64,000 nt of DNA from Candidatus Altimarinota bacterium (GCA_043787675.1 JAYVUT010000010.1:16733-80732), one strand, 5' to 3'; numbered from the stretch's first letter, positions 1 through 64,000 are shown. Notes: generated by a model not told the origin, from the sequence alone. Translations and numbers: made by a program.

Positions 1-933
1 CCACTCAGTGATATCCTCACAGATCTCAGTGATGTAGCACTCACCGTAGATAGCGATACTACCATTGATGCTAATGCGAATGGTATATTTGATGATGATT
101 TCACTACCAAGAGTTCTACAATTGCTATCTCATCTCGAGATATAGTATTTGGTTCATTCATACAACCAGGGAGATATAATATGATGCTCAGGGCAGTTGA
201 CGCACTCGGCAATACGACAACTATGCCACTCATAGTCACTGCCTATACCCCACTTCCACAGATACAGAGTGTGACATCTACAGGGTGGGTACTCGGTACT
301 ATATCAGAGTCACTCAGTGGTATACCGACTCACTTTTTCCGAGTTCGTTCATGAGAACAACCAACTCTCCTCGCATCAGGATCCACTTTGTCGAATGTAG
401 TTGGTAGATTTTCGACTGGTTCATTTTTTGCCTCTCCTGAGACTATCTCTCTTGCTCATGGAGCACAGATAGCCACAGTGACAACAAGATGAGATATCAC
501 TCTCAAATCAGGATATCATATTGAGGTCACACCTGCGAGTTCTACAGATCCTATGAGGATCCTCACAGTTGATCAGACAGGATCTATATCACATATACAT
601 ACGATATCACTCCCTACAGATACTCGGTTTGTCGATACCTCACGAACTTCCATATCTGCTACATGAGTATGGCTCACTCCTACAGCTGGTAGTACTCGGA
701 TTGTATGAGCAAGTCAGACAGATCTATCTATCCCAGGAGGACAGTATATCACTGATATGCTATATCGGCCAATAGCTGGTATAGCTCGCGATGGCAATAT
801 CTATACACTTGAACCCACCGTCACCCTCAGATACCGTAGCCGAGATGGATATATGAGTATCGAGCTTATCAAACAGGGTATAGTGGTAGCTATCGTGGAA
901 TATCGTATTGATTTTTTCTATACGATGCGATAG
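1..933 (+). CDS. C-terminal 310 aa of a large secreted or surface protein of unknown function; the 5' end lies outside the window
   Basis: Frame 1 is open from nt 1 to TAG 931-933 when the 4 in-frame TGA (352, 490, 664, 706) are read as Gly. The sequence is Thr/Ser/Ile-rich and beta-like, with no catalytic motif recognised. Confidence 0.5.
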
Positions 934-1019
934 TGCTTTCATTTGCTTTTTCCCTATTTTGGCTATACTGTGCATAAAATAGCAAAAAAGAAAATATAAT
1001 CTCATAACTTATCGCTCCT

Positions 1020-2498
1020 ATGCTTGCTCGCGTCACCATCATCGGTCGTCCCAATGTCGGGAAATCATCGATATTTAACTCGCTCTCGGGGCATCGTATT
1101 GCGATCATATCCGATATCGAGAATACGACTCGTGATATCATCGAGTACCATATCGATGATCCAGAGAATGATATCTCCTATATGATGGCAGATAGTGGTG
1201 GTATCGTGAGTGCTGACAATGAGACACTCCTCTCAGATGTCCGAGGTCGAGCCAATGATGCTATCCTCGCCTCTGACCTCATCCTATTCGTCGTTGAGTA
1301 TGATCGTATGACTGAGTTCGATGAGTATATCGTCAAGCTCCTTCGTAGATCGAAGAAGCCAGTACTGGTTGTTGCCAATAAGGCGGATAATCCGAAGAGA
1401 GCACTCGAAGCATATCAACATATGAGTCTCTGACTCGGGGATGTCGTTCCTGTGAGTGCTGTACAGACTCGTGGATTCGGTGAACTCAGAGTCAAAGTAG
1501 CCGAAATACTCAAAGAACTCGGATTCGGATATGTACCAAATGAGCTCCATGAGGGGCTGCTCAGACTCGCTATCATCGGTCGTCCCAATGTCGGTAAGTC
1601 ATCACTCGTCAATGCTATTGCCTGAGAAACTCGCTCTATAGTATATGATATGCCAGGAACTACTCGTGATGCGATCGATACAGTGATCCAATTCAACTGA
1701 GAAGACATCGTCCTCATCGATACTGCTGGTATCAGACGGGCCGGCAAGATCGGATCGGCCAACATCGAGCAGTGGAGTGTGATGCGAGCAGAGAAGTCTG
1801 TCGAGCGTTCTGATGTTGTTGCGGTCGTGATCGATGCATTCGAGGGGGTAGCTCATCAGGATGAGCATATCGTCGGTGAAGCGATGAAGGAGAAAAAATG
1901 AATCATCCTCGTCATCAATAAATGGGACAAGGTAATGAACAAACCATGAGTCAACAAAGATACTATCCTTGAGCGGTATATGCATTATCTTTCGAAAAAG
2001 TTTGATTTTCTCTCGTATGCTCCGGTCGTATTCACGACAGCGATCGAGAACAAGCGGATTGATCTCGTTCTCGAGCATGCTATAGCTATCCGTATCGAAC
2101 GCAACAAGCGAGTCAAGACGGGTGTATTCAACAAATTCCTCGAACAGATCACCTATGATCATGCCCCAACAGGGAATCGCAAGTCCCACAAGCCTCGAAT
2201 ATATTACGGATCACAGGTAGATGTGAATCCGCCAAAATTCATGATATCAGTCAACAATGCTGACCATTTTCACTTCTCGTATGTTCGCTATATCGAGAAC
2301 AAGATCCGTGAAATATTTGGATTCGAGGGAACTCCGATAGAGCTCGAACTCAGATCTCGCAAGAGTATGTTCAAACCCAAGGAACAAGGTGGATCTCGTG
2401 AGGATCATTTCTGAGAGGAGATCGTCGAACTCGAGCAAAAACTGGCAGATAAAAAGATCGATACATTTGGTAAAAAGAAACCAAGAAAAAAAAGATAG
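1020..2498 (+). CDS. der: Ribosome-associated GTPase Der/EngA
   Basis: It has two tandem G domains, each with GRPNVGKSS and DTAG-type motifs, plus a KH-like C-terminus. Track fragments 1020..1433 and 1980..2414 are in the same frame and join across 6 TGA. It ends at TAG 2496-2498. Confidence 0.9.
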
Positions 2499-2499
2499 T

Positions 2500-3504
2500 A
2501 TGAAAATATCAAAAATCTTCGCATATTTATTTGCATCTATTGCCCTTATATTCGAGGGTTTTTTTGGTGTTATTCCATTTGTATCGTTTATCCTACAAGT
2601 CATACTCATTGCATTTGCTCTCTTCTTGCTCATGTGGATGGTTCTGCGTAGCAAGGTAGGATATTGGCAACAAGTCATACCACGCTATTTTCTGACAGTG
2701 GTATCTACGATGGGATTTTTTATCTCTATCATGCTCGTATTTGTCTGATATCAGCATATGATGCCATGAGTAGTGTCTGATGTTACTCTCATGGGTTCTG
2801 GACAACATATTGTATTTATCCAGATGTCACACATAGCGACACCAGAGTTTTTTGCAACTAAAAAAGAAACTATCCAATGACTCTCTGCAAGTGGATATAC
2901 TATCCTCGTTGAGTGAGTCAAGCCTTGAACTCCAGAAAATCAAGTTCGTTTCAACCAATCGATAGGATTTGATTTTACACCGACACTCTATACTACTATC
3001 GCAGATTTGATATGACTTCAGAGTCAGGATAACCAGTTCCTTTTTGCTGGTATATGATCTGGATCCCTCGTATCTGTAGATCTATCTATCGATGATATCG
3101 TGAGAATCATGGGTAGCGGATCTCAGGTGAATATATCATCTGGATCAGTCACATCAACAGTTATCGATATTGAGTCACAGATCTCATCCGCCCTCATCGC
3201 CCTCTCTCCTCGTGAACGCATCTGGATGAGCTGGGTGGGGCGTGGACTCCTCAACTGGTCACTCAGACGATCTGATGATCTCTCAGAGATGATCACTACT
3301 GGATCACAGGCACAGCTCTTCTCGACGATCATCGATCGACGCAATAATGCCATAGTCAGATATATCCAGGATCATCCAAATCAAAATATAGCTATTGTCT
3401 ACTGAGCTCTCCACTTCAACGGAGTATATGAGGCTCTCCAGAGGCTCTCGCCAACATGGCAGATATCTCATATAGACAATAGCGAACCATATACTATCAG
3501 ATAA
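2500..3504 (+). CDS. Membrane-anchored TraB/GumN-like protein
   Basis: The N-terminus has 3 hydrophobic helices. The soluble domain carries IVFIQMSHIATPEFF and IAIVYGALHFNGV motifs resembling the TraB/GumN family. Frame 1 is open across 9 TGA to TAA 3502-3504. Confidence 0.5.
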
Positions 3505-3507
3505 TCT

Positions 3508-3927: not shown

Positions 3928-5877
<1,950 letters not shown>

Positions 5878-5880
5878 TAC

Positions 5881-5943: not shown

Positions 5944-6741
5944 ATGAATATGTCAGATCAAAAATTTCCATATACAGATGATTGAATAAAGCTCATGGCT
6001 GAATATCTTCAGGTGAGAATTACTACAGGTAATCCAGAAAAATATCAATATAATGATACTTTTATTCCTGTTATTTTCCTTGCCTGAGCTCCATGAGCTG
6101 GCAAAACTGAGTGGATAGAGTCCTTCCCTGATATTGAGCACTATGTCATACTCGATACAGATCTCTATCGCTCATTTTTTGAGGGATATACAGGATCCAA
6201 TGCTTCAGATTTCCATCAGTATGCGAGTCGTGTGATGGATCGGATGTATAGTTTTTGTATCAAAAATAGATACAACATGATCGTGGATGGGACATTTTCA
6301 AACGTAAAAAAGACTGAAGAAAATATTGCTCAGTGTAGAAAAAAATGACTCGCATTTTCGATAATTCTTGTTATGCAAGATCCTATTATTTCATATCTAT
6401 ATACGAAGAAGAGAGAACAAGAAAAATTAAGAAATGTTCCTATGGAGGCTTTTATAGAAAAATTTTATAAATCGATTCAAGTAGTTAAAGAGATACTTAT
6501 AAAATATCCACAAGGACTTGTATTTATAACAAAAAAACTTAAATCAAATCCTAAGTTTTCTGATGTTCAAGTTAAAAACTCAGAACAATTTGACAAATTG
6601 ACAAAATATGAATATAATTCAAAAGAACTGAAACAAATTATTGAACAACTCAATCATGAATGTCAGAAGAATCCTTGATTTTTAACTAAGATATTATGAC
6701 TCCTACTCAAAAACAACTTGCCCACATGAAAAAATCTGTAA
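5944..6741 (+). CDS. Zeta-toxin-family P-loop kinase
   Basis: The Walker A motif LAGAPGAGKTE has both loop glycines encoded by TGA (6085-6087, 6094-6096). The VDGTF-type motif and the size fit the zeta toxin/AAA_33 fold. Frame 1 is open to TAA 6739-6741. Confidence 0.7.
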
Positions 6742-6836
6742 AAACTGCTACTCGTGGCTCGTATGAGAAGCAGATGGCAGTCCTAGAGAAATATCCAGAA
6801 GAGCTCGCACTCGCTCGAAAACTCGCAAAGTTCTAA
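6696..6836 (+). CDS. Small 46-aa ORF overlapping the zeta-toxin 3' end; possible cognate partner
   Basis: The ORF runs from ATG 6696 to TAA 6834-6836 and encodes MTPTQKQLAHMKKSVKTATRGSYEKQMAVLEKYPEELALARKLAKF, predicted helical and basic. No homology was recognised. Confidence 0.25.
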   Translation: MTPTQKQLAHMKKSVKTATRGSYEKQMAVLEKYPEELALARKLAKF

Positions 6837-6870
6837 AATATCCCCCTCAGAAATGAGGGGTATTTTTTTT
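6835..6870 (+). terminator. Rho-independent terminator (repeat copy 2)
   Basis: The hairpin TCCCCCTCA GAAA TGAGGGG plus a T run is near-identical to the one at 5881-5912. Confidence 0.65.
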
Positions 6871-6873
6871 GTG

Positions 6874-6901
6874 TTGGCAAAGTACGGGAAATATATAGAA
6901 T
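6874..6901 (+). promoter_or_regulatory. Putative promoter (repeat copy 2) driving the restriction-modification gene
   Basis: TTGGCA, a 16-nt spacer, then TAGAAT, matching copy 1. Confidence 0.4.
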
Positions 6902-6926
6902 AAATACAAATAAATCCATATATCGT

Positions 6927-9900
6927 ATGTCTCATCTCTTCTCCAAAGCAGTTATCAACGATGCGACTCGCAATATCACTATCTCAGATCTCGAGCTCAA
7001 GATCGCTATACTCCAATGATGGCTCGATATGTATGATGCTGGATCGCTCCAGAAAAAGTCTGAGAAAGAATTTGAGGGAGTGTACAATGAGTCCTTATTT
7101 GGTACTATACTCGGATATACGAGTATAGTGAGTGGAGAGTATACGAGAGAAAAAGAACCACGCAATGAGTCCAATGGACAAAAACCAGATATTGGACTCG
7201 GATTCTATAGTCCTACGCTTGCTACGACTCAGGCAGTTGTAGAGTTAAAAGATGCTGCCACTTCACTTGATCGACCTCAACAACGAGCCGGCAATATGAC
7301 TCCTATACAACAAGCATTCAAATACAAACCCCTCTATAACTCCAAATGGGTGATTGTATCGAATTTTTTTGAGATCAGACTCTATACCGATACCTACAAG
7401 GACTATGAGTCCTTCACACTCCGAGAACTCGTCAATCCTGCAGATGACTATGTCTTATTTCGCCAGTTCTATGCCATATTCCATGCGAGTAGACTCACGA
7501 GTAGAAGTGGTGAGAGTGAGACTGAGTGACTCCTCGCTCGGGTGCGTATCGAAGAAGAGAAAATATCAAAAGAATTCTATAAGCAATACAAATCTCTGCG
7601 ACTCGAGCTCATGCGAGATATCTGGAAAAATAACCCCGAGAGTCAGAATGCATATGTCATAGAGAAATCTCAACGTATCATCGATCGTATCGTGTTCATC
7701 TGTTTCTGTGAGGATCGTGGACTCATTCCTCAGAATGAGCTCAGTTATCGAGTAGAGCAAGCCAAAAAATTTGGATTTGCTCCATGGGAGATGCTCAAAA
7801 AGTTTTTTATCTCGATAGACTCTGGAGATGTCAGTCTCGGTATCCCTGACGGGTATAATGGTGGATTGTTCCGTCCTGATGCGAGTATCGATGTACTACA
7901 TATCAGTGATAGTATCATAGAGCAGTTCGTTGCTCTCGGTCGCTATGACTTCTCTGAGGACGGTGGACAGCTCTCGGTAGAGATACTGGGTCATATATTC
8001 GAACAGTCGATCAGCGATATCGAGGAGATCAGATCCAAGATAGAGACGAGTGGAAAGGTCGATGAGGAGATCATCACAGACAAAAAAGTCTCAAAACGCA
8101 AAAAAGATGGTATATTCTATACGCCTGCCTATATCGTGAACTATATCGTCGACAATAGTCTCGGCAAGTATCTCGCAGGACATGAAGAGGCTCTCCAAGA
8201 CAAGTATGCACTCAAGTCAGATATCAACGAGAAAAACTATCGTAAACGAGAGATCGAGGCATATACGGAGTATCAGAAAATACTCCAGCAGGTAAAAGTC
8301 CTCGATCCAGCTTGTGGTTCAGGAGCGTTCCTCGTACGCGTATTCGACTGGCTCCTCGCAGAGAATCAGCGAGTAGCAAATATCCTCTACACTCAGTGAG
8401 ATCAGATACGGATCTGAGATAGTGAAGACTATTTCCGTGAGATCCTCCGTAACAATATATATGGAGTCGATCTCAACGAGGAATCTGTCGAGATCACCAA
8501 GCTCTCACTCTGGCTCAAGAGTGCTGTGAAAGGCAAAAAACTCGTCACGCTCGATAACAATATCAAGTGTGGAAACTCACTCATCGATGATCCTGCGGTT
8601 GCGGGCGATAAGGCATTCGACTGGAATATAGAGTTCGCAGATATCATGGGGAGTGGATGATTCGATGTGATAGTAGGAAATCCACCGTATGTACAATCTA
8701 GGAATATTAAATTATCAGTTGAGAGAAATTTTTTATGGAAAAAATATCGTACTGATACAAATCATTCTGATTTATATAGTTTTTTTATTGAACTTTCTCT
8801 AACTATTCTTAATACAAAATGAATTTTAAGTTTTATTATTCCAACTACTATCCTTGCAATTCCAAGTTTCAAATCTATCAGAGAATATATAGTATTAAAT
8901 TCTCATATACAAAGTATTGTAACTTTTAATAATATTAAAGTATTTGATGACGCTACAATCAATCCAATAATTATAAGTATTTGTAAAAATAAGATTCAAA
9001 AAGCCACTGACATCTATAGCTATAACCATGATATATTTTTCTTTAATAGAATTATACCAATAAATACCCTTTCATGAGATTATGCTATTGATTTAGATCA
9101 TAGCGAGAAGAAATCTATTATTATTGATAAAGTAAATACGCATGAATTACTAGATAGCATGTATAATCTTATTGGATGAATTAGAACAGGTGACGATGCT
9201 CGCTTTATTGGTGTTAATATAGATTCTTCAGATTCTAAAAAACTCATCAGATGAAGAGACTTCAGTAGATATCATTCAAGTTGGAATGGTGAATATATAT
9301 GGTATCGTCCAGATCTGATGAAAGAAAAACAGGCAGCTGCCCCAAAAGAATCAAAACTCTTTGAAGTTAATAAAAAAATTCTCATAAGAATGATAAGTGG
9401 TGAGAATTTTTCTGCTACACTCGATACACAAAAAATGTATTTATTACAGGATAATGTAATTTTGGAGAAAACACCAGATATGACACTCGAATACTTACTT
9501 GTACTCATCAATTCGAGAATAATTCAATTTCTTTTAACTACCTCAAATATTGCAGTGACACAATCTATGTTGTGAAAACTCAGGATTCCAAAAATCTCTC
9601 TTATAGAACAAAAACCGTTTATCGAACGAGCAGATAGGATGCTCGCACTGTATAGTGAGTTGCATGATAAGAGTAATAGTTTTCTCAAAAACATCTCTAC
9701 AAAATACCATATCGAGAAAGTCACACGCAAGCTCGAAAAGTGGTGGGAGCTTGATTTTGCTGATTTCATAAAAGAACTCAAAGCAAAAATATCACTCGAA
9801 GAACAAGAAGAGCTGATGTTATATTTTGACAAACGCAAGACAGAACTCCGTGATATCGTTGCTCGTATCGATGCAACAGATAAGGAGATTGATGAGATGG

Positions 9901-9965
9901 TATTCGAGTTGTATGGACTCTCGGAAGAGGATAAGAGAGTTGTTCTGGAATATAACAGCAAGTAA
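6927..9965 (+). CDS. Type IIG restriction-modification enzyme: fused PD-ExK endonuclease, N6-adenine methyltransferase and target-recognition domain
   Basis: The N-terminus has PDIGLGF..VELKD (a PD-(D/E)xK nuclease motif). The SAM motif is VLDPACGSGAFL and catalytic NPPY lies at 8679-8690. The C-terminus is an AT-rich TaqI-like specificity region with a coiled-coil tail. Five track fragments share a frame and are continuous across 9 TGA. Total length is 1012 aa. Confidence 0.85.
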
Positions 9966-10039
9966 AACAAAAACAAGCTTGCAATTGCGTATTGTTTTTA
10001 TATACTGTGTTTAGCAGTATATTTTTAACATATATAAGT

Positions 10040-10486
10040 ATGCAATCACCACATACCCAAGATCTTATAGCTCAAAGAGATCAAGTAAAAAACGAGATAA
10101 AAAATCTCGAATCTAAACTTGCAGAGTCACGCATGAAACTTGGTATATTTGAGTCGGCTATAGTCCGCTCTGAGGATATAGATAAAACACAACCAAATAA
10201 AACAGTAATAGTAAAACATAATATTCTTACTTCTATTCCAGATAATAATAAATCCTCCATAGAGGAAAGAGTTATATCCTTTCTTCAGGGCAAAACAACT
10301 CATTCTGCAAGAGCATCAGATATTACAGATGCTCTTGGTGAAGGTAATAGAGATATCAATATGAAGATATATACCTCGATCAATCGTTTAATAAAACAAG
10401 GAAAAATACAAATCGAAAAAGAATACGACTCTATGGGTTCCGAAAGACAACGAAATCGACTCTATCAATTAACCTCTTTTGTGTAA
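10040..10486 (+). CDS. Coiled-coil plus winged-helix DNA-binding protein; candidate antitoxin or regulator
   Basis: This lies within the intact track ORF 9992..10486. The N-terminus has a heptad-like helix (QVKNEIKNLESKLAESRMKL). The C-terminus looks like wHTH (ISFLQGKTTHSARASDITDAL..IYTSINRLIKQGKI). Its stop lies 3 nt before the MazF-like start. Confidence 0.5.
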   Translation: MQSPHTQDLIAQRDQVKNEIKNLESKLAESRMKLGIFESAIVRSEDIDKTQPNKTVIVKHNILTSIPDNNKSSIEERVISFLQGKTTHSARASDITDALGEGNRDINMKIYTSINRLIKQGKIQIEKEYDSMGSERQRNRLYQLTSFV

Positions 10487-10489
10487 AAT

Positions 10490-11056
10490 ATGCCGAATAT
10501 TAATATCGATCTTCGAATCGTTGTAGAAGATATCATGAAAAAAACAACGCTTTATATAAAAAATTTTACTATGTTTGTACGAGATGAGTTCATAGTGCAA
10601 ACTGAAGAAAAGAAACATAATTTACAAAATCATCTTTATTGGCTCAAGGAAAAAATTAGGCTCAATCAACTTCCAGAAGTTATAAAAGCAAGTACAAAAT
10701 GGAGTATCTATTATGTGAATTACGGTATCAATGTCTGAAATGAAATTAATGGTAAAAGGCCATCTATTATTTATAAGAATTCTGCTTGGACTTTTGGTGA
10801 AGATATCATCGTGATACCACTTACTTCAGAGAAAGTAGATAAATCCATTGATCATTTTGATGTTCGTTTACTTCCTGATATGTCAAATTGACTGAAAAAT
10901 CCTTCCTATATTAAGCTCAGACAAATACGCTCAATATCCAAGAAGCGAATAGAATGAGGTATCTGAAAAATTACTGATAAAAATATACAAGATCAGATAG
11001 AAGCTAGTCTTGTAGAGATGTTTGGAATAAACATAAAAAAATCTCCTAACGAGTAG
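10490..11056 (+). CDS. PemK/MazF-family endoribonuclease toxin with a roughly 65-aa N-terminal extension
   Basis: The core IYYVNYGINVGNEINGKRPSIIY..IVIPLTSEK..SYIKLRQIRSISKKRI matches the MazF/PemK signature. The ORF is open across 4 TGA to TAG 11054-11056. Confidence 0.7.
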
Positions 11057-11167
11057 GAGATCAAGGCGCAATCAATATTTCTATTGAGAGGCTACATCTA
11101 AGTAAAACAAGTATATCACTTTTTACACTTAAGTCAAAAATATTCTCTTTACAACTATCATTTTTCT

Positions 11168-11416
11168 ATGCCAAACATCAAAAAAACCAGCAAGTCAATC
11201 GCAAAAATAGCTTCAAAAGAGCTAAAATCTAATAAAAAGGATAAATCTGTCGATGCGAGTGTGCTCGTACAAGTCCAACCAAAAAAGGAGACATCGAAAA
11301 AAGTTGCCACAAAAGCAAGCAAGGAACTCAAGAACAAAACAACTCCTCCAAAAGAGAAGAAAGTAGCTGGCTCTGTACTATCTCAAACACCGAAAAATAA
11401 AAACACAAATAAGTAG
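11168..11416 (+). CDS. Small lysine-rich protein (82 aa) with an internal repeat
   Basis: This is an intact track ORF. It contains two copies of a SKELK..K..SVL.Q unit. It is very basic and low complexity. Confidence 0.4.
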   Translation: MPNIKKTSKSIAKIASKELKSNKKDKSVDASVLVQVQPKKETSKKVATKASKELKNKTTPPKEKKVAGSVLSQTPKNKNTNK

Positions 11417-11518
11417 TATATTGTATACAAAATATACATAATAGTATTCAATACTCAAGTGATTTTATTTGATGAGTTCCCGATTTGGGATATACTATCA
11501 AAGTTATAATCACTCCCT

Positions 11519-11737
11519 ATGCCTCAATCTATATTCGAATCCATCCGTCATATAAACGAACATCACCAAGACTATTGGTCTGCTCGTGAGCTCCAATGAG
11601 TTCTCGGTTATGAGAAATGGGAGAGATTTCAGTGAGTGATCGAACGAGCTATGGAATCTGCCAAAAACAGTAAACAGAAGCTACAAGACCATTTCGCCGA
11701 TACCGGGAAAATGGTCCAACTTGGTTCTGGACTATAG
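11519..11737 (+). pseudogene. dinD: Truncated DNA-damage-inducible protein D (first roughly 72 of about 270 aa)
   Basis: MPQSIFESIRHINEHHQDYWSARELQGVLGYEKWERFQGVIERAMESAKNSKQKLQDHFADTGKMVQLGSG aligns with the DinD N-terminus (WSARQLGKLLGYSEY..DHF..MVKIGS). It then stops at TAG 11735-11737, and no remainder follows downstream. Confidence 0.7.
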
Positions 11738-11781
11738 ATTATAGTATTTTCTCGGGTGATAGCTTTATATCATTTTATACA

Positions 11782-11890
11782 TTACATGTAAATAAAATAC
11801 ATAAAAAGTTTACATGTAATGAGAACATGTAAAGAGTTGTATATATGTTTTGATAACATGTAAATAAAACATATGAAAAGTTTACATGTT
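11782..11890. repeat. Two roughly 37-bp imperfect palindromes plus an extra half-site, built on ACATGTAAA
   Basis: The units are TTACATGTAAATAAAATACATAAAAAGTTTACATGTAA (11782-11819) and AACATGTAAATAAAACATATGAAAAGTTTACATGTT (11855-11890). A lone AACATGTAAA sits at 11824-11833. Confidence 0.6.
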
Positions 11891-11943
11891 CTATTGATTT
11901 TCAGATATCTTTTCATATACTCAGGGCAATAACCTAAAAATAT

Positions 11944-18162: not shown

Positions 18163-18173
18163 AATTAAAAATA

Positions 18174-27620: not shown

Positions 27621-27660
27621 TTTTTTCATAAAAATCTATTTTTCACTATACTTCAAACTA

Positions 27661-32444: not shown

Positions 32445-32541
32445 ATGCGGGAGTATACTCGAGATTCGCGAAAAGTCTATTTTTTGGTAAAAAAGTATAA
32501 AAAATATTTGTCAATATAAAAATATGTGGTAAAATTCTAGT

Positions 32542-37169: not shown

Positions 37170-37256
37170 TTGTTTTCTCGTATACTGTTTCCTTCGGGAG
37201 ACAGTCACGAGATGAGAATCTCGGCAAATATATTTATTTATTTATTTTTTTCTATT

Positions 37257-39799: not shown

Positions 39800-39813
39800 A
39801 TAAGATATTTTCC

Positions 39814-50841: not shown

Positions 50842-50885
50842 TGTGATTTTTTGCTTTTTCACATGAGATGTGCTACTATCATAGT

Positions 50886-52818: not shown

Positions 52819-52852
52819 AAAAAACTTTCCTCAATATTGAGGAAAGTTTTTT
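52819..52852. terminator. Bidirectional rho-independent terminator
   Basis: A 13-bp stem AAAACTTTCCTCA / TGAGGAAAGTTTT is flanked by A and T runs. The trmD stop lies inside its T run. Confidence 0.75.
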
Positions 52853-53501
52853 ATGAGAGATGTGTCATTTTCCAATTTTGGATTTTTTTCAGGTCTCCCG
52901 ATAACAGGATACTTGGAACAGCAAGATTCTCGAATATCTCTGGTCTTGAGTATTGTGGATATTCTTTTTTTCCATTGAGTCAAGGAGAGAAACTCTCCTC
53001 AGTGAGTGATTCTACTGAGAGTACCCCTGGAATCAGTCTCACTATGCTATCGATGATGACGAGTGATGCGAGCTCACCACTTGAGAGTACATAGTTGCCG
53101 ATAGAGAGTTCATAGATATCGAATAGATCATATATACGGGCATCTATTCACTCATAGTGACCACAGATAATCGTGTATTGCTCTGAGTTCCTCGATAGGT
53201 CATAACTGAGTGATTGAGTGAGAACATCTCCTCTCGGACTCGTCAGGAGTATTGGCATCTTCCCATATCGGCTCTCTATATCTCTCAGACAATTCGATAT
53301 TGGCTCTATAGTGATGAGCGTGCCAGCTCATCCGCCATATGGACGATCATCCACACGTCTCGTATTGCGGACACTATAGTCCGCTAGGTTATATATTTTA
53401 TAGACAAAGAGCCCCTTATCTTGGGCTCTTTGCATGATACTTGTATTGAGATATGGCTTGATACTCTCTGGAAAAAGAGATATGATATGTATCGTGATCA
53501 T
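52851..53501 (-). CDS. trmD: tRNA (guanine37-N1)-methyltransferase TrmD
   Basis: Motifs are [20 protein letters not shown] and [11 protein letters not shown] (the third G is TGA 53328-53330, complement), plus a SPOUT-knot region. The protein is 216 aa and the frame was checked. Confidence 0.9.
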
Positions 53502-53502
53502 T

Positions 53503-54408
53503 TTATTGGATATCTATGATCTCAACATCGAAGTAGAGATCTTTCGACATGAATGGGTGATCAGCAAGGATGGTAACTGTTTTGTCACCGATTTCTTTGA
53601 TAGTTATTTTTGATCCATTAGGCGGAGTAGCTGATTCGCCTACAGCAAATGATTTACCATAGAACGGACTCTCTTTATTTGTGATCTGTAGAGTTACGTT
53701 ACTCCCTTCTATAGATAGAATCTTGAAATCTGCACCAGTACTCGTTGCAACTGCACCGACTTTGATTTCTTTTTTGTAGAATGGATTTCCTATATTCTCG
53801 ATTGCAAGAGTAATTGATCCTGACGATACTGCTGATACCTTAGCTGTTGCATTATTGGCTCCAGTGAGAGTATCTCCGACTTTTGCATTCATTACTTTAT
53901 CCTTCATTTCAGCAGGGAACTGAGATTTCTCGATTGTCTGAGAAAGAACATTATCGAACATTTTTTTATCACGAGTGATAGAGAATTCTGGAGCAATCTG
54001 CTCCTTGGCTATAACTACTGGCCTACCATAACCTTCTGATGGTATGACCTTGATTGTTTTTTTCTCACCCTTATGCAAACCCATGAGACCAGCTTCAAAT
54101 CCGACGATAACCTGACCTTGGCCAAGTGCTACTTGGAATGGCTTGTAAGTAGATCCAGTCTTGTAGAGGCCATTTGACATAGCTATGGACTCAAGTGTTG
54201 TCTCTTGGATAGGTCCAGTTGGTGAATCAGTGTGGAGAGTATAATTGAGAGTGAGCACAGATCCAGTAGACGCCATAGTTGTGCCAGACATCATTGTGTT
54301 CGGAGTTCCTATCTTATCTGGAGGCATCATTGCATCATCATTTTTCATACCAGGGAATGTACAGCTCGCGAGCGAGAGGAGGAGTGCAGATATCAGGAGA
54401 ATACGCAT
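53503..54408 (-). CDS. FKBP-type peptidyl-prolyl isomerase lipoprotein with an extended C-terminal domain
   Basis: It has the lipobox LLLSLASC and the FKBP core FQVALGQGQVIVGFEAGLMGLHKGEKKTIKV. This is an intact track ORF, and the start is chosen at the internal Met preceding the signal peptide. It has no TGA in about 300 codons. Confidence 0.8.
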   Translation of the reverse strand: MRILLISALLLSLASCTFPGMKNDDAMMPPDKIGTPNTMMSGTTMASTGSVLTLNYTLHTDSPTGPIQETTLESIAMSNGLYKTGSTYKPFQVALGQGQVIVGFEAGLMGLHKGEKKTIKVIPSEGYGRPVVIAKEQIAPEFSITRDKKMFDNVLSQTIEKSQFPAEMKDKVMNAKVGDTLTGANNATAKVSAVSSGSITLAIENIGNPFYKKEIKVGAVATSTGADFKILSIEGSNVTLQITNKESPFYGKSFAVGESATPPNGSKITIKEIGDKTVTILADHPFMSKDLYFDVEIIDIQ

Positions 54409-54477
54409 AGGAGAGAGTGGTAAAAAATAGAAATATAAAGGTGACTGCCGTATGAGCATTACCAATTGATAGATATT

Positions 54478-55464
54478 TTATAGATTTTTTGATTTTTGCA
54501 AGTCCAGTAGGGCTAGCTCTATTGCCAATATTCGTCATAATTCACTATCTTTGAGTCATTTTCCTCTCTTGTATGCGACGCTCATCATAGCGAGTTTATT
54601 ATAGAGTTTTTGTAGTTCGCTATATGGTATCTTGCTTATATATCATTTTTGTACCACATACGGGTGGATTCTAGTGATGTCTACTATATCTGATTCCCTC
54701 TCTCCTTGTTCTCTGAGGTATCTGATATAGAGAGTATTGCGGAGACTCCCCATCCAGCCTCCGAACCACTCATCTATCTTGGTAGTCGCAGTGATGCGAT
54801 GGAGTATATCGAGTGCTCTGACTATATCCATAGACATGACAGCATCTGTGAGTGCGAACATCGTATCTCCCCCATAGCCATGACAGAGTGCTATGATAGC
54901 ATCTTTTTGTTGCAAAACTCCAGACAGTGATACCATTTCGATGGTATGTGCAATATGGTGTCCCAAGAGCGGATTCCCGATATCATCTTTGCTACGAGTT
55001 GCCTCAGCCCCTTTATAGGTCGAGAGTATCAGATTCAACGCCTTCGTGTCTATATTTGATCTCTTTTCCCAAGCATCTTTATCCCAGAGAGTATCTATTT
55101 TTCTATTATCAGCATTTTTGCGTAGCCACGTGAGGAGTCATTCTTCTTTTTCTCACACATTATGAAATAGTAAATAATGATCCTCTGGTATATTGTCTGA
55201 TTTCTCTTGGAGCATCTTCTCTATTCCATCTGCTTTGCTCTTGCGATCTCGTCACCCACGAAATATAAATAATCTCTTTTCAGTGAAGAGTCCACTCATC
55301 AGTATCATATCACCCATTCACCTCATACTATCTTTGTCTCCGAGGTCATAGCGATCGATATTGATATCCCCGAATTTGAGACAAAATGCCCCGAGCCATC
55401 TCCGTACCTCTAGTTCTACGCCATAGCTATCATTGCCAGTAATGTGAATGATATTCTTGTACAT
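54478..55464 (-). CDS. holA: DNA polymerase III delta subunit (HolA)-like
   Basis: The N-terminus IIHITGNDSYGVELEVRRW and the overall length (328 aa) resemble HolA. The frame was checked (8 TGA). Sequence similarity was judged by eye only. Confidence 0.6.
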
Positions 55465-55534
55465 ATTGCTATCCTAGGAGTATCTCTCCAAAATTCAACT
55501 TTTCTTTTTATATTTTTGTAATATTATATCATAT

Positions 55535-56074
55535 ATGTTCAAGCTTATTTTTGCTCTCTCTCTGATATGTGCCCTTGCATCCTGTACTGCAGGTAGGTAT
55601 GAGGCTGTACATATACTATGAAAATTCCCTCAAGATAGCGAAATCCGAGTCCGTGGTATGTGAGTCAGGCTCCCAGATCATAGCATCCTCACGAGTGCCC
55701 ATGTTGTCCGCGATGATAGTATGATCTATGATATAGACTGAGAGAGATATCAGGCAGTCTACCGAGATATCCCATGAGATCGAGCTATCATAGCGAGAGA
55801 TACCACTCATCAGAATCAACCTCAAATCCCTAAACTCGCAACAGTCCAACTCTGAGGTCCTATATATACTGAGGTGAGTAGATCTGGTGTGATAGTGAGA
55901 ATAGCTGGTAAGGTCGTAGATCCTGCCGCATCGGTGCTCGGCTATGACTCCCTATGACGAGTTGTATCCCTCTCGGGGATAGTACGCATCGATGTAGATC
56001 TGTCTCCATGAGATAGTGGGGCCCCCATATATACATCTTTATGAGAACTCGTAGATGTAGTCCATGTGAGATAA
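55535..56074 (+). CDS. Small trypsin-like (S1/S1B) serine protease lipoprotein
   Basis: It has the lipobox ALASC. The catalytic His is in LTSAHVV, and the Ser is in PGDSGAPI (the G before DSG is TGA). It is only 179 aa. Confidence 0.65.
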
Positions 56075-56075
56075 T

Positions 56076-56102
56076 AAAAAACACCCGAGAGGGTGTTTTA
56101 TT
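56076..56102. terminator. Bidirectional terminator between convergent genes
   Basis: The hairpin ACACCC GAGA GGGTGT has an A run upstream and a T run downstream. Confidence 0.7.
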
Positions 56103-56119
56103 AAAGCTCAAGAGGGATA

Positions 56120-58330
56120 CTATTTTTTTGGAGGAGGTGTAGTTGGATTTTGTGTTGTAGATTCTGTATTTGTAGATCCTCCTGATTCATTATTTGCTTG
56201 TTCTGTGGTAGTTTTTTGAGCTCAACCAGTTGATGCAGTGGGGTGAATTTGTTTATATAAATACTGCCCCTCGTGGCTGTCTTCAAAATATTTCTTTGAA
56301 ATCATTCATTTTTCATATGCTGCCTTTATTTTCGGTAGATCACTTGTTATATCTTTTACTCACAATGCTACCATATTACTTTTTAGATCTGCTTCATTGC
56401 TCCATGTTATTTTTCAGTCTGCTCCCTTTTTTCAATATTTCTCTAGAATTGTATTTAATCATTCCGCAGTTTTATCCATTTTATTTCATTTGCTTTCTTG
56501 ACTGAGTTGAGTACGTAGATTGCCTACCATAGTATCTGTAGGAATATTAGTTGTTCGAATAGCCTCTATAGCTTTTACTGTTTCTTTTCTTGCGGCTGCC
56601 TCTAATCCAAGAAGTTGTCCAAGTGGGCTCTTGGCGTCTTCGTTGGTTCTATGGTCTTTATAGCCTTGTTCTACTTTCCCTATACCTTTTTCCATACCAC
56701 TCATACTCATACCGAGTCCAGGAATAGGAGTGTACTTCGGTATGCTCTTGGCGAGTGATCACACTTGACTACCGATCTTCTCAAATGGCTCAACAGCCAT
56801 TGCCACTGCTTTGCTCACATTCTTGGCTGCCATGAATGCCATCCATATGAATACGAGAGCTATGATATCGATAATGAGAGTACCAAATATACCACCAGCA
56901 GAGTTGAGTACACTCATAGTTCCACTCGCTCATGCAGCTTCCGTTGCTGGATCTATAGCTGCTCCAGCTTTTCATTCGAATGTTGTTTGGACACCACCGA
57001 ATTTGATGATATTGAGAGTTTTTGCTTCAGGTTCACCGAATTTGACTATTTTCCTTGTTATAGAGTTTTCACTATTACCAGCTATACTGATGATTTTACA
57101 TCATTCTCCCTTTATCATATCAGAGGTACATGGTGTTGTTGTAGCACCAGCCTTATCACTTCCTACTGCATTTATGAGTATGAGTCAAAATGATAGTGCA
57201 AGTCCGACGATCGCAGGGACGAAGCAGAGTCCGACGAACTCCTTGATCGTGAATGTATCCTTGTCTCCTCACATCATCGCAGATCCAGCAACAAACTGGA
57301 AAGTAAATAGTGGAGAGAATATCGCATAGACCCATAGCTTGATCGCTCTTACGAGGAGCATCGCAACGAGTGCCAGAGTGAGGAGACCGAATACGACAAA
57401 CATGATAGCCGCAACTATTCACTGATGTACTATCCCGAGCCCTGTAGATATTATATCTAGCCCTTGAGGGAGATTTTTTACTTCCTGAAACCTGAATACT
57501 GAATATGCATATATCATCATATAGCCATACATTCCAGCAGATTTATTGATGACATCTATAGGAGCTATACAATTTCCACCTTCTTTTTGTCCATCACATA
57601 TTGTTTTACTAGTATCAAGGCTACTATTTTTTTTGAATGAGTTATCATTTATAGTTATCTCTCTTGGTATACTTGGCGTACTCATCCAACTTTTCCCATC
57701 TTTATCTAGATTTGCCATAGTCTCAGCTGGAATAGTGATGACAGATGCAGTCACGACACTCGCGAGCGATACTGTCCACTGGACGAACCACCAGGTAAAT
57801 GGTACCATCAGGATACCGAGTGCCAGTTTTGGGAGCATTACTTTGTAGGAAAATGACTCTTTCCCGAACATCGTCCCGAGTGCGATGAGGATCAGTAGGA
57901 TCGCATAGACAAAATATACTATATTGGATACTGTCACCCAGAGTGAGTACATAGGAGTACGTAGACCAAATAAATCACCACTCGTCCAATCTGGAGACAT
58001 CAGCCATCATGCGAACATGATAGCAGGGGAGACAATAGCTGTGATGATTCCGAGGATAATATTGAGTCCGTCTATGAGACTATTCCACATCTTGAGTTGG
58101 TCTGTTGAAGTTGCTTTCGCATCTTTTGTCTCATAGGCAGATGCATCTAGTCCATTGATCATACCATCACTACTACTGGGTCCACTACCTGCAGCATATG
58201 TGTGCTGTTCAGTATATGATATACTCACTATTTTATCATTCGATCATATCATTTCGATATGTATATTCCCAAAAAACCCACTAAGAGCGACAAGTGATAG
58301 GAGCGAATATGTGAGAATGCGTTTGAACAT
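56120..58330 (-). CDS. Large polytopic membrane protein (736 aa) with a hydrophilic C-terminal tail; VirB6/TrbL-like topology, function unknown
   Basis: Track fragments 58007..58228, 57419..58000 and 56486..56710 share one frame. It has an N-terminal signal, at least 6 TM segments and a Trp-rich loop (PFTWWFVQW). The roughly 200-aa charged tail ends TTQNPTTPPPKK. It ends at TAG 56120-56122. Confidence 0.6.
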
Positions 58331-58435
58331 AATTGCTAAGGCTAAATACCAGAAAATTGGAATATAGATTCATTAGACCACAATTTGTTTTTTTTTGCAA
58401 ATATTGTGATTGTTTCTTTGTCAAAAAACTCCCCA

Positions 58436-59281
58436 CTATTGGAGAGTCTTGGATATATTTGCTTCTGCCTCTGTCTGTATCAATTTCAGTGTCCTGATGA
58501 TATCTGTTCCAGAGTCAGGGATGACTACAGTCGATCTCTTGATGAGGGCATCTCGATTATTCGAGAGAGCATCGATCAATTGCAGATTGCGTATCTGGAG
58601 AGCAGTATAACTTTGCTTGAATCTACCCAGATATATGAGATAGACGCGGGCTCTGGTATCCATATGTTTTGCCGTGATATAGCTATCGATCGCTCCATCG
58701 ACACCACTATAGTCATACGCGTCGTAGGAGGATTGCATGATATTTTTGGCACTACTCGTCTCACTCGTCGATCTATCGATAATCCCCTGGAGGTCTCAGA
58801 TCTGCTCTCCTATTACAGACAGTCGCTCGAGAGTGCGATTGTAGTATGACTTTAGCAGTGATATATGTTCCCCGAGTGCTACTGCTCTATCTGTCGCACT
58901 ATCGAGGAGATGTACTATATCTGTAGAGAGGATATTCGCGTAGCTCGATATCCCCAGCATATTGCTCCCTATGAGTCGTTGTTGTCATATATTCGGGGAT
59001 GAGAGCACCTCAGCGATAGAGATAATATTATTTGATAAATCTACACCTGCATATTTTATTTGTGTTTCTTTTTGTCCGAGAGAGAGACTCATTGCCGTTG
59101 CAATATTGCCCATATATGTAATATCTGCTTGTGAAAATGAGAGATCGTTGGCTCCAGCACTCGTCTTGAGTCCGAGCATCGGTCATATATATCCCCATGA
59201 GAGATGGAGTATGAGTGTGAAGAATAGCGTCAGAATGAGTGTGTTTCGTATGAAGTCCTTGACTTCGCTCGTGAAAACCAT
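58436..59281 (-). CDS. Membrane-anchored hypothetical protein (281 aa), first gene of the operon
   Basis: The N-terminal TM is NTLILTLFFTLILHLSW, followed by a helical soluble domain. Track fragments 58985..59179 and 58436..58738 share its frame, and the gaps were checked (3 TGA). It ends at TAG 58436-58438. Confidence 0.5.
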
Positions 59282-59340
59282 AATTTGGGAAGTAATCTTT
59301 TCTTGTATTGTATCGTTTATTTCCTATTATTGCAAATAAA

Positions 59341-61551
59341 ATGCGTTATTTTATCATTGTTGTTACCCTGTGTCTCCTATTGATAGGGACTCTCATACAC
59401 CGCACACCGACATATGATATGACTATAGAGAGATCCCAGATGACCCCCATATGAGATATGGCATACCGTACCACTACACAAAAACCAAAGAATATCTGGT
59501 ATATAGGGATCAAAAATCCTAAATCCTCTGATGCGAATATATGTGTAGATTGGATATTTGCTCATGCAACAAAAACCGAATGTATCGATCATGATGGGAC
59601 AAGGAGTGGGGATGAAATATTCTCATTCCCAGTTCTTGTGGATGCGACCGATAGTGCATCATTGCATATTGTATGATCACAAATTGACCCCAAGGATATC
59701 ACCGTATATTCGATGGATACTCGTGCCGCTGGTTCTCGACTTGGATTCGCACTTCCTGGTGCTCGAGCCGAGAATGGTATCATATCTCGAGCTGAGTGGT
59801 GAGCAGATGAAACGATGCGATATACAGATAGTCCATACTGGCAGAATCGCTACCCTATATATCTCCAGTATGTCCAGTCCCCGAAAACTCAGGCACAACT
59901 CGATGCCATCAATATAGAGAACAAAAAAGTCGACTACCTCATCAAAAATGGATGAGCTGCTACAGAAGTAGTCTCACTCAAAAGAACTGAAAATGGACAT
60001 CCACTGGTATGGCCTATCGAGAATACTCGGCAAGTATCTCGTATTGTCATCCATCACACTGCCCAGAGTCTCGATAATACCAAGACAGATGCTGAGATGA
60101 TACGTGGTATCTATGCGTATCATACGCTCTCGAGAGAGTGGGGAGATATTGGATATAACTATCTCATAGCTCAACGGGGGCTCATATATGAGGGGAGGGC
60201 TGGTGGTGACTATGTAGTGGCATCACACGCTGCCTACAACAATATGGGAACTGTCGGTATATCGATCCTCGGTGACTATAACCGTGATCATCTCAATCGT
60301 GACCAGATATCTGGTATCGCCCAAGCTATATCGATGATGGCGAGCAAATATGGGATCACGCTCTCTGATAGCAAAAAGTGAGTTAGAAAGTGCAGTATAG
60401 CTAGTTGTGAGCTGTTTGATATCGTAACTACCAAGTCACTCATGGGTCATCAGGATATCGGACACACTGATTGTCCCGGATCAGATACCTATCCACGCAT
60501 CTCTGAGTGGATATCTCAACTTGATCGATCATATAGCCCAGTATACAATAGTATTTGAGGTACTATAGAGCCAAAACTTCCTGGTACAGAAATGAATATG
60601 TCATTGCGAGTCGCAGCACCTATAGCTACATATCCATCTACACTATTTGCTCCGAGTATAGCAACAGTGAAATATATATGACCCAAGTTCAGAGTCAGGC
60701 TCTCGTATCCAGATAGTACGAGTATCACTCTCACAACAGCAGATAGCAAGATCGGTAAGCTCATACTCGATCAGACAAAAATACCAATGCAAGTATCTCA
60801 AAAAGTACAAGTATGAATAGTATGAAATACTCAATTATCAGTACAAATATGACAAAAAATATATACTGGATCAGTAATGAGACTATCTCATAGTATAGTG
60901 CGTATCGACTCATGGGATCGTATTCCTGACTGGGACAAGAGTGGTAAGTACAATGACAATCTATTCCGTGATACCATCAGAGTCATAGCTCAAAATGGCA
61001 AACTTGTAGTCATCAATGATCTCCCTATAGAATGGTATCTCAAGGGTATGTGAGAAGTATCAAATAGTGATCTCAGTGAGAAAATCAAGACGATCATAGT
61101 ATCTGCTCGCTCATATGCAAGATGGTATATGTCACCTCAAAATCGTAAATTCCCAGGTGAATCCTATGATGGGTCGGATGATCCGGACGTATTCCAAAAG
61201 TATCTCGGATACTCGTATGAACTGAGATCTCCTATAGTAGCGAAGTTCGTCGACGCGACTCGTGGACAAGTTATCACATATTCTGGTCAACTTATCAAGC
61301 CTTGGTACCACTCATCTTCTGATGGTCGTACACTCTCTGCACTCGAGTATTGTCAAAAAAATGGATCATCGAATTGTGTCGATACTCCATACCTCCAATC
61401 CGTCATTGACCCAGGTTCAGTATGACGTACTAGATCTGGACATGGGGTCGGAATCTCTGGAATCGGAGCTACATATTGGGCTCAGGCAGGATGGGATTAT
61501 CCGCGAATTATACAATACTACCTCAAGTGAGTTGAAATATCTAAAAAATAG
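59341..61551 (+). CDS. Fusion of an N-acetylmuramoyl-L-alanine amidase (Amidase_2/PGRP fold) with a SpoIID/LytB-type lytic transglycosylase domain
   Basis: It has a signal-anchor. The amidase motifs are RIVIHHTAQS, WGDIGYNYLIAQRG and GHQDIGHTDCPG. The SpoIID-like C-terminus carries EWYLKGMGEVS, VSARSYARWY, SDDPDVFQKYLGY, WYHSSSDGRT and GHGVGISG. The frame was checked line by line (about 16 TGA). The protein is 736 aa. Confidence 0.8.
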
Positions 61552-61590
61552 ATATACTTTTTATAGTTTTATTCTTGACCACAGTATACT

Positions 61591-62133
61591 ATGTATCTTT
61601 CTGATCGTGATATCCGTACTGCGATTGACGCTAGTACTATCTCTATATCTGATTTTGACGAGTCTCGTCTCCAGCCAGCGAGTTATGATATCCGCCTTGG
61701 AGATAGATTCCTGATTGTAAAGGAATACTCAGTAGCCAATATCGACCCCGTCAATCATATCCTTCCAGAATATGAGGAAATCATCGTCACCGCTGAGCAG
61801 TGACTCATCCTCCGTCCTGGAGTCACTGTCCTTGGCACCAGTGTAGAGAAGTTTGGCTCTGAAAAATATCTCATCCAACTATCAGGTAAGTCATCTCTGG
61901 CTCGTATCTGACTCATCGTCCACAATACTGCATGACTCATCAATCCAGGTCACTATCTCAATATCACATTTGAACTTGCGAATATGAACTCTGTACCTAT
62001 CATACTTCGTCCTGGTATGGATATTGCTCAACTCCTCTTCGCTGAGATGAGTTCTCCACCAGACCAAGACTACAAAAAAGTTGGACGATATGGGGAGGGT
62101 GAGGATAATATGGTCTGATATATAAAAAAATAA
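61591..62133 (+). CDS. dcd: dCTP deaminase
   Basis: Motifs are LQPASYDIRLG, GKSSLARIGL and the PGH region. Track ORF 61591..61803 continues across 4 TGA to TAA 62131-62133. Confidence 0.9.
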
Positions 62134-62192
62134 ATTCGCAAAATACTCCTATTTTCATATAATCTAGGGGTATTTTTGTAATATGTATTATT

Positions 62193-62621
62193 ATGCAGGT
62201 TCAAATCCAAAATTCGTCGTGAAAAATTCTCGAATATAAAACTCCCGGTGCCTGTGCTTTTGATTTTGAGGCTATGGAAGAGGTAGTATTTGCTCCTGGC
62301 GAGTGGAAACTCGTGGAAACAGGAACTGCAATTGCTACACCACTATGATATTGCCTCGTCGTATCTCCGAGATCGAGTATATTCAAGAATTATGGACTCA
62401 TGCAGGTCAATAGTATTGGTATAGTGGATCAGGATTATTGCTGAGAAAAAGATACTATCAAATTTCCTTATATTAACATGAGAAAAGAAGAAGTGATTAT
62501 CAAAAAATGAGAACGAATCGGGCAAGGTATGTTTGTAAAAATTGAAAAACCTGAATTTGTATTGATAGATAAAATGTGAAGTGAAAATAGAGGTGGTTTT
62601 GGTACTACAGGACTCAAGTAA
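62193..62621 (+). CDS. dut: dUTP diphosphatase
   Basis: Motifs are GACAFDF, VSPRSS, GIVDQDYCGE, ERIGQGMF and the C-terminal RGGFGTTG. The frame was checked (6 TGA). Confidence 0.85.
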
Positions 62622-62632
62622 AAACCTAAATT

Positions 62633-63109
62633 ATGAAAATCACAGCTATACTCGCTATGGACCAGACGCTACTGATCGGTCGAAAAAATGGGCTCCCATG
62701 GAATATTCCCGAAGATATGAAGCGTTTCCGAGAATTCACGATCGGAGGCACTGTAGTGATGGGTCGCAATACCTATCTCTCTCTTCCAGACCGATTTCGC
62801 CCACTGCCCCATCGTCGAAATATTGTCATAACGCATATTCCTCTCGATTGAGTTGAGTGTTATTCGAGTATTGAATCTTGTATCTCTACTCTACAAGTAG
62901 AAATGATCGAACAAGTATGGTTGATCGGATGAGCGTCACTTTACGATCAGTTTTTTGCCCATAAACTCGTTGATCAGATAGAGCTGACATTGCTTGATGG
63001 AGAACATGAGTGAGACATACGGGTATCCGAGTTTCGCTCTGATTTTCATGAGATATCGAGCAGAGATTTTTCTCAGGGTCGATTCATTACACTTATTCGC
63101 AATTCTTAA
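62633..63109 (+). CDS. folA: Dihydrofolate reductase
   Basis: Motifs are ILAMDQTLLIGRKNGLPWNIPEDMKRFREFT, VVMGRNTY and WLIGGASLY. It ends at TAA 63107-63109. Confidence 0.85.
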
Positions 63110-63121
63110 TTTTTCTCTCTT

Positions 63122-64000
63122 ATGCATGCAGAGCAACAATATCTCGATCTCCTCCAGAAAATTATGGACACATGAGTAGATCGTATGGATCGTACCGGTG
63201 TAGGAACTCGGTCGATTTTTGGTCATCAGATGAGGTTTGATCTCTCTCAGGGATTTCCACTTCTCACGACCAAAAAAGTATTCATCCGAGGTATCATCCA
63301 TGAACTGATCTGGTTCATCTCTGGTATTACCAATATTCGTCCTCTAGTGCAGAATGATGTGAAGATCTGGAACGAGTGGGCGTATGCAAAATATCTCAAA
63401 AAAACAGGAAAAGATAAAGAGTTACCGAGGTATTCTCCAGAGTGGGATGCTGAACTCGTAAATTTTATTGAAAAAATAAAAATAGATGAAGATTTTGCAA
63501 ATGAATGGGGTGATCTTGGTCCAGTATATGGGAAGCAGTGGAGAGCCTGGGAAACTCGGAAGGGAAATGTGATCGATCAGATTCAGAATGTACTCAATAC
63601 TCTCGCGAATGACCCCTATTCTCGTCGCAATCTTATCTCCGGATGGAATGTTGGGGAGATAGAGGAACTCATCAAGGATAAGGATACTGCACCACCACCT
63701 TGTCATACGCTCTTCCAGTTCTATGTAGCAAATGGTTGCCTCTCTTGTCAACTTTATCAGCGGTCAGCTGATGTATTCCTCGGAGTACCATTCAATATCG
63801 CATCATATGCACTTCTCACCATGATGATCGCTCAGGTGAGTGGACTCCAACCTGGTGAATTTGTCCATACATTTGGTGATGTACATATCTATCATAATCA
63901 CTATGATCAGGTTCGCGAACAACTCAGTCATACGCCTCGAACATTTCCTATTATACATATCAATCCAGCAATAACAGACCTCTTTGCTTTTCGATTTGAG
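63122..64000 (+). CDS. thyA: Thymidylate synthase ThyA (3' end beyond the window)
   Basis: Motifs are [22 protein letters not shown] (catalytic Cys) and [21 protein letters not shown]. The frame is open to the window edge. Confidence 0.92.

Follow-up and report, generated by a model that had tools for sequence, protein, structure and literature searches.

Introduction

The codon UGA was reportedly recognized as a glycine codon in 2013, when Rinke et al. are said to have described translation table 25 in Gracilibacteria/BD1-5 and Campbell et al. the same reassignment in Absconditabacteria (SR1). In Mycoplasmatales and several insect endosymbionts, the same codon is read as tryptophan (table 4). 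Here we analyse how UGA is read in a 64,000-nucleotide stretch of DNA from Candidatus Altimarinota bacterium (GCA_043787675.1, JAYVUT010000010.1:16733-80732), hereafter called the window, with positions counted from its first letter. An initial annotation, made from the sequence, had proposed that UGA specifies glycine throughout the window and that the standard gene track is therefore systematically fragmented.

The change of UGA to glycine is a hallmark of the clade formed by Gracilibacteria and Absconditabacteria (PMC8629427, PMC11452946). In a proteomic study of a BD1-5 bacterium, 97 peptides were found uniquely with the database in which UGA is glycine, three uniquely with UGA as tryptophan and none uniquely with UGA as a stop (Hanke et al. 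2014, PMC4032931). The mechanism described for the clade combines a tRNA-Gly whose anticodon is UCA and the loss of release factor 2 (RF2) (PMC8629427; 10.64898/2026.05.24.727570). Recoding of UGA to glycine is already known, since 2013, with proteomic validation in 2014 (PMC4032931), and is a textbook property of the clade.

Our analysis indicates that the window almost certainly derives from an uncultured member of the Gracilibacteria (BD1-5 or GTDB class JAEDAM01 type) that uses table 25, in which UGA means glycine and UAA and UAG are the sole stops. Table 25 Gracilibacteria (GTDB class JAEDAM01, order BD1-5) likewise use UGA frequently for glycine and terminate only at UAA and UAG, and the window differs from them in nothing in kind. 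It had been called AT-rich, which it is only moderately; its GC content of 39.6% lies inside the range of 0.21-0.53 reported for these organisms (PMC8629427). The Absconditabacteria, a sister lineage within the Candidate Phyla Radiation (CPR), have the UGA-to-glycine reassignment in common with Gracilibacteria but are also predicted to read CGA and CGG as tryptophan (PMC8629427), whereas in the window these two codons are common and act as arginine. In table 4 systems the same codon has been freed, with the same effect on the length of open reading frames (ORFs) and on coding density, but the amino acid is tryptophan there and glycine here.

Results

UGA alone fragments the gene calls

The stretch, part of a contig of 113,664 bp, can be described as a whole as follows.

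1-64000, no strand assigned: chromosomal fragment, almost certainly of a Gracilibacteria (BD1-5-type) organism; 60 genes with TAA and TAG as sole stops

Under table 11, the window contains a single stop-to-stop ORF of at least 300 amino acids (aa), compared with 34 when TGA is read as sense; in control calculations, freeing TAG or TAA instead gave two such ORFs in each case. Coding density was compared by an identical greedy procedure under each code, with 70 aa as the shortest ORF accepted. Table 11 yielded 110 ORFs with a median length of 101 aa and a coding fraction of 60.6%, and reading TGA as sense yielded 61 ORFs with a median of 254 aa and a coding fraction of 96.1%. The systematic fragmentation of the gene track is therefore real, and genes regain normal lengths once they are re-called with TGA as a sense codon. 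The 60-gene set occupies 95% of the window and carries 348 in-frame TGA codons, which account for 1.71% of all codons and 24.2% of glycine codons. These TGAs are spread uniformly along the genes (Kolmogorov-Smirnov P = 0.52), with no enrichment at 3' ends. All 59 closed genes stop at TAA (37) or TAG (22), and none needs TGA as a stop, as had been proposed.

That UGA might nevertheless be a true stop, with the fragments representing pseudogenes, assembly errors or occasional read-through, is suggested by the field of short same-frame ORFs seen under table 11 and by two 'Gracilibacteria', so labelled by NCBI, in which UGA is still a stop (Shulgina & Eddy, PMC8629427). However, TGA is the only interruption in the 60 genes, across which we found neither an in-frame TAA or TAG nor a frameshift. 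The essential genes ftsH, alaS, tsaD, trmD and der would all be broken, and the TGA sites are common to, or occupied by GGN in, the 78 related loci described below. A contig from a separate assembly (Logan SRR23617267_2173893, 16 kb; locus L079), matched starting from the TGA-free FKBP gene, shows 0 mismatches to positions 52825-64000 (11,176 bp), so the sequence of the window is independently confirmed. The codon comparison with the relatives refutes a true stop, a reading that we consider extremely improbable.

We also scanned all 60 products against Pfam with X placed at each TGA. Domains ran continuously across TGAs in FtsH (AAA domain, 1-130 of 131), RuvC (1-145 of 148), TsaD, TrmD and an EVE-domain protein. 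The housekeeping proteins recovered included Der, FtsH, UvrC, TsaD, SmpB, Cmk, a class A penicillin-binding protein, L10, L7/L12, AlaRS, RlmE, RuvC, TrmD, HolA, Dcd, Dut, DHFR and ThyA. Because this is a normal bacterial housekeeping set with domains running through the TGAs, the window is cellular DNA, neither phage nor a field of pseudogenes.

Codons aligned with UGA in related loci

To compare codons with those of relatives, GTDB species-representative genomes were scanned with the window UvrC protein, which gave 78 loci totalling 1.28 Mb. These were translated with TGA masked, and codons were compared at aligned positions. The test is not circular, because GGN means glycine in every code. 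At 181 TGA columns of the window, represented by 3,891 aligned pairs, the relatives had GGN in 36.7%, TGA in 24.4%, serine codons in 7.0% and alanine codons in 4.8%, a substitution profile that matches that of the window's own GGA, GGT, GGG and GGC codons. Where the columns beneath a window TGA were strongly conserved, the residue was glycine in 37 of 41. Read from the other side, the conserved glycine columns of the relatives are filled in the window by GGN (195), TGA (37) or another codon (5). TGA is the sole codon whose commonest aligned residue is unlike its standard meaning. We thus show that UGA is a sense codon meaning glycine, not tryptophan, and that all other codons keep their standard meanings.

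Tryptophan is the residue that table 4 would place at these positions, and neither gene length nor coding density can separate tables 4 and 25, being the same under both. A 2026 preprint describing gTranslate (10.64898/2026.05.24.727570) gives cases of UGA-to-tryptophan reassignment in a few Patescibacteriota, and a public protein collection holds the window UvrC (P0001) with W at 15 of 15 TGA codons. The codon comparison points the other way. Tryptophan was found opposite a window TGA in one of the 3,891 pairs (0.03%), and at the conserved tryptophan columns of the relatives the window has TGG in 41 of 41 and TGA in none. Composition agrees: GGN (5.4% of codons) and TGA (1.7%) together give a glycine content of 7.1%, whereas adding TGA to TGG (1.15%) would raise tryptophan to an implausible 2.9%. 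The alignments to solved structures presented below contain one low-confidence W beneath a TGA, in the restriction-modification (RM) enzyme. The codon comparison refutes the tryptophan reading, which we regard as very unlikely. In the same protein collection, a JGI relative (P0005) also has W at the TGA codons of UvrC, and an NCBI relative (P0002) has glycine. Coding-density pipelines treat genomes with UGA as glycine as table 4 (10.64898/2026.05.24.727570), and the W in the stored UvrC points to calling of this style, which gets the gene boundaries right and the residues at hundreds of glycine sites wrong.

UGA in proteins with solved homologues

A second, independent test used hand-read alignments to solved structures (PDB) of proteins from standard-code organisms, including FtsH, TsaD, RuvC and AlaRS of E. 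coli. A 'Gly column' is one in which every homologue shown, or almost every one, has glycine. The genes and sites concerned are as follows.

1020-2498, plus strand: der/engA, 492 aa, 6 TGA; B. subtilis EngA has Gly columns at two of them, and Gln and Ala opposite two others
3928-5877, plus strand: ftsH, 649 aa, 5 TGA; AAA and Peptidase_M41 domains unbroken
4699-4701, plus strand: FtsH TGA in AVA-x-ESGVPFF; Gly column in E. coli and T. maritima FtsH
4873-4875, plus strand: FtsH TGA in PGI-x-GGHDEREQ; Gly column in solved FtsH structures
6085-6087 and 6094-6096, plus strand: Walker-A TGAs of a zeta-toxin-like kinase; LA-x-AP-x-AGKT aligned to G-AP-G-SGKS of Pnkp1
6927-9965, plus strand: Eco57I/MmeI-type RM methylase-nuclease, 10 in-frame TGA
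8658-8660, plus strand: RM-enzyme TGA before FDVIVGNPPY; in frame, Lys in CamA and Arg in BrxX, not an invariant Gly
25722-27620, plus strand: uvrC, 632 aa, 15 TGA; TGA 20, 401, 422 and 600 on Gly columns of solved UvrC domains
27604-28635, plus strand: tsaD, 6 TGA; the TGA at 28072-28074 in SG-x-HT is a Gly column in E. coli and Salmonella TsaD
37728-39539, plus strand: alaS, 603 aa, 7 TGA; at TGA 426, AlaRS of A. aeolicus and E. coli has a Gly column
47930-48400, plus strand: ruvC, 4 TGA, three on all-Gly columns; 47954-47956 is the DP-x-T site
52851-53501, minus strand: trmD, 3 TGA; the TGA at 53328-53330 in PYGG-x-AG is a Gly column of solved TrmD
61591-62133, plus strand: dcd, 180 aa, 4 TGA; two on Gly columns of M. 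tuberculosis Dcd

In total, 42 TGA positions could be aligned, of which 21 fell on Gly columns, 2 on mixed columns and 19 on variable columns. With a glycine background of 8%, the binomial probability of at least 21 of 42 by chance is ~1e-12. The Gly-column sites are AIA-G-E and GL-G-GGH of FtsH; SG-G-HT and YPG-G of TsaD; YGG-G and E-G-ID of TrmD; DP-G, T-G-Y/F and G-x-G-x-A-x-K of RuvC; the two glycines in Walker A of the zeta-like kinase; the 'pGG' motif of the methylase; P-G-VY and three further sites of UvrC; position 426 of AlaRS; and two sites each in Der and Dcd.

The initial annotation had quoted eight TGA codons as falling on invariant glycines. All eight lie in frame, at the coordinates and in the peptide contexts given for them, and the invariance holds for the two in FtsH, for those in TsaD, RuvC and TrmD and for both Walker-A positions of the zeta toxin; it fails for the RM enzyme, where the homologues have lysine or arginine. 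Taken across sites, the residue beneath TGA is glycine both in the codons of the 78 relatives and in the solved standard-code homologues.

Placement of the window and the codons CGA and CGG

The clade was assigned from nearest neighbours and record labels, not from a tree. All 78 nearest UvrC loci belong to metagenome-assembled genomes labelled Candidatus Gracilibacteria, 'Peribacteria' or Patescibacteria group; their UvrC identity to the window ranges from ~80% down to 39%, and the gene order g16-g34 is kept in many of them. A UvrC protein search returned only Gracilibacteria-type proteins among its best 120 matches, the named ones being Gracilibacteria or Altimarinota. Because W- and G-translations are mixed among these matches, they cannot serve for an unbiased test of columns. 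An NCBI 'Gracilibacteria' label is not in every case a sign of table 25 (gTranslate preprint, 10.64898/2026.05.24.727570), and in-frame TGA was therefore checked directly in each related locus. It was found in the matched genes of 78 of 78, and the frequency of TGA per 100 codons is 1.71 in the window against a median of 1.77 in the relatives.

The annotation had left Absconditabacteria open as a source, and the extended code of that lineage, in which UGA is glycine and CGA and CGG are tryptophan, needs consideration, as CGA and CGG are reported to be read as tryptophan in Absconditabacteria and CGG in some Gracilibacteria (PMC8629427). In the window, however, CGG aligns with arginine in 72.5%, lysine in 13% and tryptophan in 0% of cases in the related loci, and CGA aligns with arginine in 64.8% and tryptophan in 1.3%. 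Neither codon is rare (98 CGA and 29 CGG per 10,000 codons). An Absconditabacteria label is absent from all 78 nearest loci. An Absconditabacteria-type code is thus hardly credible. Since CGA and CGG behave as arginine codons, the code is plain table 25. This behaviour and the nearest neighbours together support the assignment of the window to the BD1-5/Gracilibacteria branch rather than to Absconditabacteria, so that the original placement in a recoded CPR clade stands, narrowed to Gracilibacteria. The species is probably unrepresented in GTDB, because its UvrC is at most ~80% identical to that of any species representative.

tRNA(UCA) and release factors

No tRNA gene was found in the 64-kb window, and no Rfam family reached its gathering score there. 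No release-factor domain was detected by Pfam among the 60 window proteins, which represent a small part of the genome. The GGQ motif of release factors was likewise found neither in the window nor in the 78 related loci, a result that is uninformative because these are small fractions of their genomes.

Three related loci contain a tRNA(UCA) gene, namely L039 (13272-13350, minus strand), L041 (12935-13013, minus strand) and L051 (14156-14234, minus strand). In each, it adjoins a tRNA-Arg(GCG) gene ~1.4 kb downstream of uvrC. The three sequences are near-identical, with a single base differing in L051. The tRNA is 79 nt long, with G1:C72, C2:G71 and G3:C70, the discriminator U73 and an encoded CCA. 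Judged by these features, the tRNA(UCA) of L039, L041 and L051 is predicted to have glycine identity and satisfies the rule of Shulgina & Eddy for tRNA-Gly(UCA) (PMC8629427).

ARAGORN names this tRNA 'tRNA-SeC' because its anticodon is UCA, and draws it with an anticodon stem of 6 bp and a D-loop that is enlarged. This label would favour selenocysteine as the meaning of UGA. However, the molecule belongs to the class-I tRNAs: its acceptor stem has 7 bp, its variable loop is short and its discriminator is U73. It matches the Rfam tRNA family (43 bits) and not tRNA-Sec. The 348 UGA codons of the 60 genes, moreover, fall on glycine columns rather than on cysteine or selenocysteine columns, cysteine being opposite TGA in 4 of 3,891 pairs. 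These observations refute a selenocysteine reading, whose probability is vanishingly small.

For a table 25 genome of this kind, a dedicated UCA-anticodon tRNA with glycine identity (G1:C72, C2:G71, G3:C70, U73) would be charged by glycyl-tRNA synthetase (GlyRS) and read UGA. RF2 would have been lost, leaving release factor 1 to read UAA and UAG. What is established for the clade suggests that decoding by tRNA(UCA) and GlyRS, together with the loss of RF2, may apply to the present genome as well.

Uneven use of UGA among genes

TGA is not used equally by all genes. It is absent from the genes of two ribosomal proteins, L10 (12 GGN codons) and L7/L12 (13 GGN), and from that of the FKBP lipoprotein at 53503-54459 (26 GGN, P = 0.0008).

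36534-37634, plus strand: rplJ and rplL (L10 and L7/L12), no TGA; 25 of 25 glycines are GGN

In ftsH, the share of TGA is also low, at 5 of 54 glycine codons (P = 0.005, against 24.2% overall). It is possible that UGA is avoided in highly expressed genes, which may be what the low TGA use of L10, L7/L12, FKBP and ftsH reflects. The absence of UGA from the L10, L7/L12 and FKBP genes also hints at expression-dependent avoidance resulting from inefficient decoding. This is one form of a wider alternative, in which an unrepresented lineage decodes UGA in a non-canonical way, either through such avoidance, or without a dedicated tRNA-Gly(UCA), or with RF2 kept and UGA ambiguous. We regard this alternative as a whole as very improbable.

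Other features of the window

The number of in-frame TGAs per gene can be high. Essential genes had been described as broken into 2-8 fragments, a range that proves too low, as UvrC contains 15 TGAs and the following gene 51.

18646-24486, minus strand: alpha-2-macroglobulin-like gene, 1946 aa with 51 TGA; synteny kept in 27 related Gracilibacteria loci

In its very large product, the domains are MG2, A2M bait region, TED and bMG10.

Genes of toxin and defence type are clustered at 5944-13014. They comprise the zeta-toxin-like kinase, a methylase-nuclease fusion of the Eco57I/MmeI type (1012 aa) that has a TaqI-like specificity domain, a 148-aa gene of unknown function with MazF/PemK after it, a Bro-N fragment, and a Fic protein whose C-terminal domain is a helix-turn-helix.

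Several products are short. AlaRS (37728-39539), with its catalytic and editing SAD domains, reaches only 603 aa. The PriA-like product (17176-18210, minus strand) has only 344 aa, made up of a Cys-rich region and the C-terminal part; the N-terminal helicase half is not found upstream, where nrdR is located instead. The ORF containing smpB (31995-32753, minus strand), in turn, begins with ~100 codons that lack homology to SmpB, and over the whole ORF the ratio of TGA to GGN is an abnormal 11:9. The real start of smpB is probably near codon 93, which would leave ~300 nt upstream as non-coding. Neither tmRNA nor any other Rfam family was found upstream of smpB or anywhere in the window at gathering score.

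Pfam gave no match for a 470-aa Cys/His-rich protein in 39700-41112, for a 648-aa protein in 50868-52814, or for a 736-aa multi-pass membrane protein and the adjoining 281-aa protein in 56120-59281. The genes in these three regions each read through many TGAs.

At the end of the window lies a run of nucleotide-metabolism genes, dcd-dut-folA-thyA-tmk, which the Logan contig continues beyond the window. Locus L079, taken from this contig, adds 459 bases past the window end, with the remainder of thyA and the first part of the thymidylate kinase gene tmk; no tRNA was found in these bases.

Discussion

UGA is an ordinary glycine codon in the window, where roughly one glycine codon in four is UGA. 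Several observations weigh against this reading and have to be set beside the evidence for it. The glycine meaning of UGA in this organism is deduced from DNA and not from protein. The window has no tRNA gene, a release-factor gene was seen neither in it nor in the related loci, and tRNA(UCA) comes from three loci that are only distantly related, with ~50% UvrC identity. Roughly half of the TGA positions lie where distant homologues have variable columns that are not Gly; any glycine codon would be expected to show this, and single sites therefore prove little. Finally, eight genes have a TGA no more than 10 codons before their TAA or TAG, and by length these could end at the TGA; about ten such genes would be expected by chance. 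In uvrC, the 3' end (27612-27620) reads ATT TGA TAA, so that the final sense codon, TGA, abuts the stop, and opposite this TGA the relatives have TGA, GGG, GGA, GTG or no residue.

The value of assigning table 25 to the window is practical rather than conceptual. A table 11 gene track is useless here, as it presents 110 fragments in place of ~60 genes. A table 4 call puts tryptophan at 348 glycine positions, including the Walker-A and other catalytic glycines, and tryptophan stored at glycine sites can degrade homology searches and structure predictions. Plain table 25, with no reassignment of CGA or CGG, sets the translation of every protein in the window.

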